This document shows positions 22,386-24,048 of a stretch of 64,000 bases of DNA, one piece after another; the first letter of the stretch is position 1; each line of letters starts with the position of its first letter. Below the pieces are notes generated by a model. It was given only the letters and a program-made list of their open reading frames with translations. It made no database searches and was not told the origin of the DNA. The DNA comes from Eledone cirrhosa (Eukaryota). Position numbers and translations under genes: made by a program. The DNA lies in the NCBI GenBank assembly GCA_964016885.1, contig OZ024740.1:116746001-116810000 (forward strand), read 5' to 3'.

Positions 22386-24048
22386 AAACACGGTCATGTT
22401 TAGGACAATCTCGAACAAAAGTAAAAAACCAGCTCAACCATCACAGAGCGAGATAGAGCTGGTTTTAAAAGACGTCATGAAGGACATCACCTTCATTCAG
22501 AAGGATAGACTCTACGGGAGTCTATCCATTCTCATGAAGGACAGGGACACAGCAGTGAAACTGTCCATCAAACCAATCACATCCACCGCATACACCTTCT
22601 ACCCTACGTACATGGGTAGAAGAACACAAAAAATAAAAATCCACACCATCCTGCCGATTATGGACATATGGTGGGTTTTGACAGGTTTTCTGGACCTGGA
22701 GGATGACATGCTGGTGTCCATGGGAAAGGCATCGGGTGACGCGTTCAGTGGAACGAGCCTCGAACTTGTAGTTCAAATGAGGCCCGAAAGGATCGCCCAG
22801 ATCCCTGAACGCGTCATACTGGATGATCTAACCTTCATCAACATTACCGTTGAGGGTAGACGGCCCTCGTGTTACCTCTGCGGAACCAGAGGTCACCTGA
22901 GGGCTGTCTGTCCCCAACTTAATAAGAAAACCCCAATCCTGCCTACACCACCAACAACTGCACAACCAACACAATCACCACAACTACCACTACAAAAACA
23001 ACCACCACAGCTCAAACCAAAACAAAACAATGTCCAACCCATCCCCTCCACTCAAAAAACAAAAACAATTTCCAAAACACCCGTACCGCAAACACAACCC
23101 GAAAATATACCCCTCCCCTCCAACGCGGAAGATGACCCTAGTTCGTCGTCAGACGAGGAGGAGCACTTCCACACAATCAAAAGAAAAAAAAGAAAACACA
23201 CCTCAGACACACAAATGAAAAAAAAACCCTCCCCAAAACATAACACTGACACCAACACAAAAGAGCTCACAACAGCAAACAAAAAACACCACACAAAAAC
23301 AAAAACATGCATACACATACATAAATACAAGAAACAAAAAACTGTTAAACATTGTGTACAACAACAATCTAATAAAAACACAAGGGCCTAACTTCACCCA
23401 GGCAGGGGATTTCCCCCACCTCAAAATGATTAAGGCCCCACAGGACACCTATAAAACTTTAAAAAACAATTTTAAAGAGGACGTGGGTCCCCCCTGCGTC
23501 GGGCCCATTAACCGCGTCCTCCTAAAAAACTATCCCACCCCCTCCCCAAACACCCTCACAACTCCAAGCTCCCCAACCACACAACACACTGATGCCCCCA
23601 CACTTCCACAAACCACGACCCCACCCAACAACCCATCCCCCACCCTAATGGAAATTGTGCAGCCCGATACCCGGGACGCAGAGAGGTAAGTGCCTTTTCT
23701 CTTCACCACCAACATGGCTATGCTAAGATTAGGCTGTTTAAATGCGCGTGGCCTGGGCTCAACTTGGAAGCAAGCAATGCTTCTAAATGACCTTTCTATA
23801 TCAGCCTGTAGATTGAGGAAAAGGAGGAGGAGAGGAAAGGAGTACAAGCTCTTCGTACTCCTGGAGATGAGGGTTGCACATTTTTTCGGGGGTATGTGTT
23901 ACCCATATAAACTGTCTCCCTCTATTGGGGAAAATCGACTAACTTTTAAATTCCATCTGTGATAACATTTTACACGTTTTTATTGTATGTAAACTTCCCC
24001 CTTTGTATTTGTCCCTTCTTTTGTGCCCCTGTGGCTAATAAAGAAATA
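22386..24048 (+). mobile_element. Tx1 family 1 derivative: partial ORF1, ORF2 almost wholly deleted, 3' UTR intact
   Basis: ORF1 zinc knuckle CYLCGTRGHLRAVC; ORF1 stop at 23689; ORF2 start MAMLRLGCLNARGLG joined at about 23793 to the last ORF2 codons; 3' UTR nearly identical to 18828-19064. Confidence 0.9.

Follow-up and report, generated by a model that had tools for sequence, protein, structure and literature searches.

We consider it likely that copy C, one of five related LINE copies arranged head to tail in the window (the whole 64-kb stretch of DNA analysed here), is a one-off, dead-on-arrival insertion of a multi-copy LINE of the L1/Tx1 type, and that its splice motifs were inherited passively. 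By the coordinates of the nearly full-length copy E, copy C lacks 3,350 nt of ORF2, in line with the ~3.3-kb loss proposed in a first-pass annotation, and the two motifs singled out there, i.e., a donor at 23686 (AG/GTAAGT) and an acceptor at 23804 (CAG), are indeed both kept, 119 nt apart; they survive because both breakpoints fall inside ORF2. The 3' UTR is intact as well, the 3' part of the copy matching copy A at 251 of 255 alignment columns, with AATAAA at 24037. The label "ORF1-only" holds insofar as ORF2 with its reverse transcriptase (RT) is absent and the parental 3' end is kept, but the 5' end is at least 272 nt short and the ORF1 frame is broken.

LINE copies stacked in (ATCT)n and their relatives

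The window is microsatellite-rich animal DNA, and the five copies (A to E, representing at least three subfamilies) occupy 17.5-30.7 kb (Table 1). Copies A, C, D and E begin directly after ATCT, and each of the nine ATCT/AGAT tracts of four or more units in the 64 kb is located at an end of one of the five copies (17478-30697; one window only), indicating that this LINE lineage apparently targets (ATCT)n. Such a target was not found in the literature compared. The Tx1-clade elements Kibi and Koshi, which occupy (TC)n and (TTC)n, resemble the family described here in having an APE-type endonuclease, an RT, a C-terminal zinc finger and a CCHC-type ORF1 (putative in the present family), and their copies too are stacked in microsatellites; the present family differs in its (ATCT)n target and in its octopod nearest named relatives (PMC4494074, in part).

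Some features of the array stand by themselves. Unlike the other four copies, copy B starts after an (ATCA)n run located behind an ATCT tract (20780-20826), and the tail of copy E (30610-30697) passes from (ATCT)n directly into (AGAT)n, a near-perfect inverted repeat that closes the array. Elsewhere in the window, other retroelement fragments lie on the minus strand at 10767-11348 and 38002-38322 (RVT_1, E 6.7e-15 and 1.1e-4, respectively), and three more without a Pfam match are found at 13257-13994 (+), 14495-15058 (-) and 33083-33436 (-), which by eye we take to resemble C-terminal pieces of LINE or Penelope elements.

Table 1 Features of the LINE array and of copy C (positions of the window)
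Feature	Positions	Strand	Remarks
Copy A	17508..19070	+	5'-truncated; closest to copy C at the 3' end (98.4%)
Copy B	20827..22270	+	5'-truncated; 94% to A and C at the 3' end
(ATCT)n	22274..22385	+	copy B tail and copy C insertion site; tracts 22274-22345 and 22350-22385
Copy C (feature under study)	22386..24048	+	
Copy C ORF1, 5'-truncated	22386..23689	+	stop 23687-23689
Copy C A-run	23217..23226	+	one base more than main family contigs; breaks ORF1 frame
Copy C donor-like AG/GTAAGT (cut AG|GTAAGT)	23684..23691	+	GT at 23686; overlaps ORF1 stop
Copy C ORF2 5' stub	23714..23793	+	26 codons and 2 nt; start of endonuclease domain
Copy C junction base T	23794..23794	+	both parental sides C in the aligned contigs; T in copy B (3' side)
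Copy C ORF2 3' stub	23795..23811	+	17 nt; acceptor-like CAG ends at 23804; ORF2 stop 23809-23811
Copy C 3' UTR, intact	23812..24048	+	AATAAA at 24037
(ATCT)n	24057..24120	+	copy C tail and copy D insertion site
Copy D	24121..24777	+	5'-truncated; member of a third subfamily
Copy E	24790..30610	+	near-full; sister subfamily; ORF1 with frame breaks
Copy E open ORF2	26930..30376	+	1,148 aa; endonuclease, RT, zf-RVT

The ORF2 of copy E matches Exo_endo_phos (E 2.9e-9), RVT_1 (3.5e-27) and zf-RVT (8.5e-5, below its cut-off) in Pfam, and among solved chains human L1 ORF2p comes nearest to it (E 2.8e-53, with R2 at 7.6e-20). With an APE endonuclease, RT and C-terminal zinc finger all predicted in ORF2, the parent family belongs to the L1/Tx1 group of LINEs, and a putative Tx1 label fits its domain set. 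ORF1 matched zf-CCHC at E 0.024 (below the Pfam cut-off), no Transposase_22 domain was found in it by Pfam, and its look-alikes in the Atlas (0.90-0.93) were CCHC and ZCCHC3-RBD clusters, which we treat as a lead only; type I ORF1p domains have been called consistent with Tx1 (PMC5203782). The best named match of the copy E ORF2 is an Argonauta hians protein (62% identity), and the named relatives of ORF1 come from Argonauta hians and Octopus sinensis, which makes an octopod host probable. A further ~80 unnamed proteins (P0003-P0082), nearly all from ENA assemblies and many on long contigs, show 36-44% identity to ORF2 and probably form a close sister group. A HMMER search of representative proteins with ORF1 returned 166 relatives (of which the best 150 were examined), while residues 1-200 matched none of 198 candidate proteins at E 0.001. 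Metagenome LINE loci (best 80 of 361) were 23-33% identical, the exception being L036 at 44% with broken frames. No relative was found among 94 stretches of viral contigs, and a donor-to-ATG pattern had no match in viral contigs. The family could already be present in Repbase-type family lists. In Octopus vulgaris, L1-Tx1 elements have been reported to be recently active, with 13 families and 421 insertions (PMC13282606, in part).

The ORF1 of copy C comprises an RNA-binding-like domain, a putative CCHC knuckle, a low-complexity linker and a conserved C-terminal domain. The latter, a second conserved domain with a K..F..D.G pattern (23400-23540 in copy C, 26706-26820 in copy E), has no Pfam match and is common to the ORF1 relatives P0115, P0116 and P0118. 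The missing 5' end is apparent from two family contigs that extend 272 nt (record 1 of run X1, 1,665 nt long) and 275 nt (record 9 of run X2) beyond 22386, and from four ORF1 homologues with 66-158 residues ahead of their first aligned position. The main X1 and X2 contigs do not share the extra base in the A-run near 23218 that breaks the frame, and it may be either a private mutation or an assembly error; tallies for the A-run, summed over overlapping contigs, were 14.3/14.3 in X1, 553/556 in X2 and 2,239/20,731 in X3. Given that only five substitutions in ~1,660 nt (junction base not counted) separate copy C from records 1, 5, 7 and 8 of X1, the copy is young.

The deletion junction

Parental sequence was read from the Logan contigs of four runs (X1, X2, X3 and X6, the last with depth in 26 of 30 bins) aligned to copy C; candidate runs numbered 23, from 13 studies, and 17 of the 23 contain part of the stretch. 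The aligned runs are of unrecorded or presumed type, and among the runs listed with part of the stretch none was an RNA run, which says nothing about expression. Downstream of 23793 the parent continues as CAGG.. (at least two contigs in X1, three in X2 and eight in X3), and upstream of 23795 it reads ..CCTTCTC (at least one contig in X2 and 11 in X3), so that the two flanks share CT, or CTC if the T at 23794 is counted as a mismatch or an added base. The AATG(A/GG)CCTT microhomology to which the first-pass annotation attributed the join therefore falls away, as the parental flanks contradict a crossover at AATG..CCTT, which would also require the loss of a further 3 nt. Its fusion of the two ends of ORF2 is correct to the extent that both stubs are present (26 codons plus 2 nt, and 2 nt plus four codons and the stop), but their frames differ and an in-frame fusion is rejected; the fused frame encodes 82 aa and extends into the 3' UTR, and this peptide had no relative among proteins of 45-144 aa and no exact match in the protein collection. 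That the copy is not itself a spliced product was rightly stated, since its breakpoints (23793/23795) do not coincide with the splice sites (23686/23804). The same mismatch rejects a spliced retrocopy as the source, and a lariat read-through product would join the branch point to the donor and not to a site 107 nt downstream of it.

Within the window, the junction is unique (one match at up to three mismatches, versus 0.00 expected from 100 shuffles). In three of the four runs contigs diverge from copy C at 23793 into parental ORF2, and among the matches listed (32 pieces, four runs) no contig crosses 23794, where a bridging contig would be short. In X1, record 5 has two unaligned letters past 23795, which suggests that there is no contig branch at the 23795 node. 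In X2, the depth of bin 23786-23841 minus that of the 3' contig leaves 889 units, i.e., 111 per base over the eight upstream bases, approximately the family ORF1 depth (99-121), and as a rough bound this sets a depth ceiling for a bridging contig of ~23, or ~3 if flow is conserved, against 121 on ORF1. Taken together, contig and depth data argue against a major subfamily with this junction and leave room for a low-copy one, as Logan contigs drop rare variants, the bridging contig would be short and contig depth does not equal copy number.

We would give a template jump during reverse transcription slightly less than an even chance of having made the join. Target-primed reverse transcription would have taken the ATCT tail of copy B as its starting point, copying the first ~255 nt of the 3' end, whereupon the reverse transcriptase may have resumed ~3.35 kb upstream on the template at the CT/CTC match, possibly with one added T, and gone on to copy the ORF2 start and most of ORF1 before stopping short of the 5' end. 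In X1, X2 and X3 the summed depth over the 3' end far exceeds that over ORF1, the pattern that a majority of short copies would produce, and a first stop after ~255 nt would then be ordinary. The same scar would result from break repair after insertion, a lesser, distinctly less probable variant. Untemplated bases occur at RT jumps, and a jump at integration seems preferable to later repair because the copy is young and the odd base sits exactly at the join. Internal deletions with microhomology have been described in LINE copies, and repair after insertion was proposed for those of Hebe (PMC2861651, in part). These internally deleted, 5'-truncated copies resemble copy C in being single-copy losses at short microhomology with inactivated ORFs, and differ in scale, 12-200 bp being lost at 5-14 nt in Hebe versus 3.35 kb at 2-3 nt plus a 5' truncation here (PMC2861651, in part).

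Run X3 contains, at a depth of 8.9, another internal deletion, of 150 nt (23599-23750), that takes out the donor together with the ORF1 stop and the ORF2 start, which implies that sporadic deletions occur in the family irrespective of splice motifs. The promoter of a LINE lies at its 5' end, and as this end is missing, copy C would be silent for want of a promoter of its own, making the 119-nt candidate intron at most a read-through curiosity.

Splice-like motifs in the parent family

The splice motifs belong, on sequence grounds, to the parent, where they lie beyond the chance expectation of the analysis and appear to be a stronger lead than the deleted copy. In copy E, a donor at 26885 and an acceptor at 30369 bracket ORF2 in phase, delimiting a candidate intron of 3,485 nt. 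Apart from this donor, which overlaps the ORF1 stop, no MAG|GTRAGT occurs on the plus strand in 5.8 kb (AGGTRAGT being expected 0.146 times per element), and ten bases of the donor region are identical in copies C and E, whose ORF1 N-terminal parts are 36-65% identical as protein; the identity is less surprising in view of the ~69% DNA identity around the donor. By pyrimidine count, a crude stand-in for splice-site scoring, the AG at 30369 ranks first of 278 AGs in copy E, and the matching AG ranks first in copy A and is kept in B and D (10 of 14 pyrimidines in the tract of copy C vs 11-12 in A, B, D and E). Donor and acceptor phases match, and splicing would give ORF1-(S/R)L followed by ORF2's own stop (computed for copy C, by eye for E and D). 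Among the matches listed (best 150 of 166 ORF1-like proteins), P0115 ends in GK and P0118 in GKS, the only two with GK/GKx ends and also the only matches to the C-terminus of the copy C ORF1 at E <0.01, and such ends would be compatible, judged from the proteins, with a GGT AAG T donor at the ORF1 stop in another frame. All these statistics on the parent are after-the-fact tests, including synonymous resampling of the acceptor, which gave P of 0.014 (A), 0.053 (B), 0.082 (E) and 0.14 (D). No donor was found at the ORF1 stop of 28 distinct metagenome LINE loci with a usable ORF1 end (one had a donor nearby), these being drawn from 58 with a long ORF2 among the best 80 of 361.

We consider it unlikely, if far from negligible, that the parent splices out ORF2 as a stop-to-stop intron, with the donor at the ORF1 stop joined to the acceptor two codons before the ORF2 stop; some function of the parental donor is somewhat more probable. 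Either way, ORF2 splicing in the parent is a question separate from the origin of copy C and compatible with a one-off insertion. Two other roles for these motifs are rejected. An intron of 42-53 nt that fuses ORF1 to ORF2 would be in phase in both C and E, but uses an AG at different codons, the one in copy E ranking only 67th of 278, and a donor serving in U1 protection against early polyadenylation would have little to protect, since the 3.4-kb ORF2 of copy E (26930-30376) contains no AATAAA or ATTAAA. Several such signals lie in its ORF1 region. Donor-like motifs also occur in copy D straight after the ORF2 stop (AG|GTGAG, 24510-24517) and in copy E ~18 nt into the 5' end (G|GTAAG, 24807-24812).

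A limited literature search found no LINE reported to splice out ORF2. One parallel is the gag-only RNA of Ty1/copia elements such as EVD, which like the parent has a conserved U1-type donor near the end of its structural ORF and hence a possible mRNA for the structural protein only (PMC5580714, in part). In EVD, an LTR element, splicing is proven and is coupled to early termination, whereas the parent is a non-LTR element whose hypothetical splicing would take the whole of ORF2 as the intron and retain the normal 3' end (PMC5580714, in part). Human L1 (SpIREs and SpORF2) produces LINE RNA with usable splice sites, and its spliced forms can reinsert, but its splicing removes the 5' UTR or ORF1 and keeps ORF2 (PMC5860796 and PMC2896524, both in part). 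Copy C is no SpIRE, as its breakpoints are not splice sites (PMC5860796, in part).

Competing origins and biological meaning

A one-off insertion has its own difficulties: a jump and a truncation within a single reaction make a less parsimonious history than the truncation of a daughter whose master was already deleted, only 10 nt separate the 3' breakpoint from the acceptor downstream of it, and among the matches listed the junction was found independently in no run, so that it may be an assembly error. The first-pass annotation had left the choice between a HAL1-like subfamily and a one-off RT template jump, and it is the one-off event that is favoured, the HAL1-like alternative being unsupported with no second locus found in the window, the 5' end missing and ORF1 not open. 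Copy C would in that alternative descend, as a 5'-truncated daughter, from an ORF1-only subfamily of the HAL1/HeT-A/Sponge kind that is non-autonomous and low in copy number; the master would supply ORF1p and, by way of its intact 3' UTR, be mobilised in trans, whether or not the 119 nt are removed. We regard this, including a HAL1-like master copy elsewhere, as improbable. Copy C has the architecture of ORF1-present bipartite LINEs (PMC5786205, in part), its 3' UTR is intact, a deleted master would account for deletion and truncation as separate events, and the ORF1 of such a master could be open, given that the frame break is absent from the main X1/X2 contigs. However, no second junction locus was found in the window, the family contigs run on into ORF2 with none bridging the junction among the matches listed, the rough X2 depth bound leaves little room, and the deletion leaves the acceptor tract with 10 pyrimidines in 14 where there had been 12. 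HAL1, HeT-A and Ag-Sponge share with copy C an ORF1 region and the parental 3' end without an RT, but they are amplified and encode ORF1p, whereas copy C is a single known copy that lacks its 5' end and has a broken ORF1 (PMC5786205 and PMC5753468, both in part). Of the HAL1-like features, copy C thus shows the loss of ORF2/RT and the kept parental 3' end but not an intact 5' end and ORF1, and we do not class it as HAL1-like because it lacks an intact ORF1 and no second locus was found in the window.

That the junction is an assembly or chimeric-read artefact of a repeat-rich array seems very improbable. The array does lie in microsatellites, copies C and E both carry homopolymer-type frame breaks, and no piece crosses 23794 among the matches listed in four runs, but a single-locus junction is expected to be absent from simplified contigs anyway. 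Collapsed repeats usually join at long homology, and the join here is base-sharp, collinear and at a 2-3 nt match. Doubtful, too, and slightly less probable than an ORF1-only subfamily, is an origin linked to splicing, in which ORF2 would be a stop-to-stop intron of the parent, pausing or structure at the 3' splice region would have set the breakpoint, and copy C would be spliced at 23686-23804 via read-through. The copy E donor, the ten bases that it shares with copy C, the rank of its acceptor, the matching phases and the GK/GKS ends of P0115 and P0118 (2 of 150) speak for it. Against this, the encoded residues account in part for the acceptor (P 0.014-0.14 in the synonymous resampling), P0001, whose ORF2 is 69% identical, ends in MHL and lacks an AG at the codon concerned, P0116 has no GK end, P0115 and P0118 are known as protein only, the distant LINE loci gave 0 of 28 for a donor at the ORF1 stop, and copy C is without its own promoter. 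The spliced form was also absent among the three joints listed, a weak point that says nothing on RNA. We therefore retain a one-off insertion with passively inherited motifs, and infer that its junction is unique to this locus.

As a single broken copy, copy C carries little weight, such copies being common by-products of LINE mobility. If its junction were multi-copy, it would represent an invertebrate, target-specific, ORF1-only helper element. If the parent does splice, an ORF1-(S/R)L mRNA with a normal short 3' UTR would provide ORF1p in excess, while the unspliced RNA would make ORF2p and serve as the template. A non-LTR element would then use splicing to set the ratio of ORF1p to ORF2p, as a counterpart among LINEs of the copia gag-only RNA, and copy C would be a natural reporter with a 119-nt mini-intron, possibly the seed of an ORF1-only helper family. 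Such parental splicing would also be relevant to the LINE transcripts reported from octopus neurons (cited in PMC13282606, in part).
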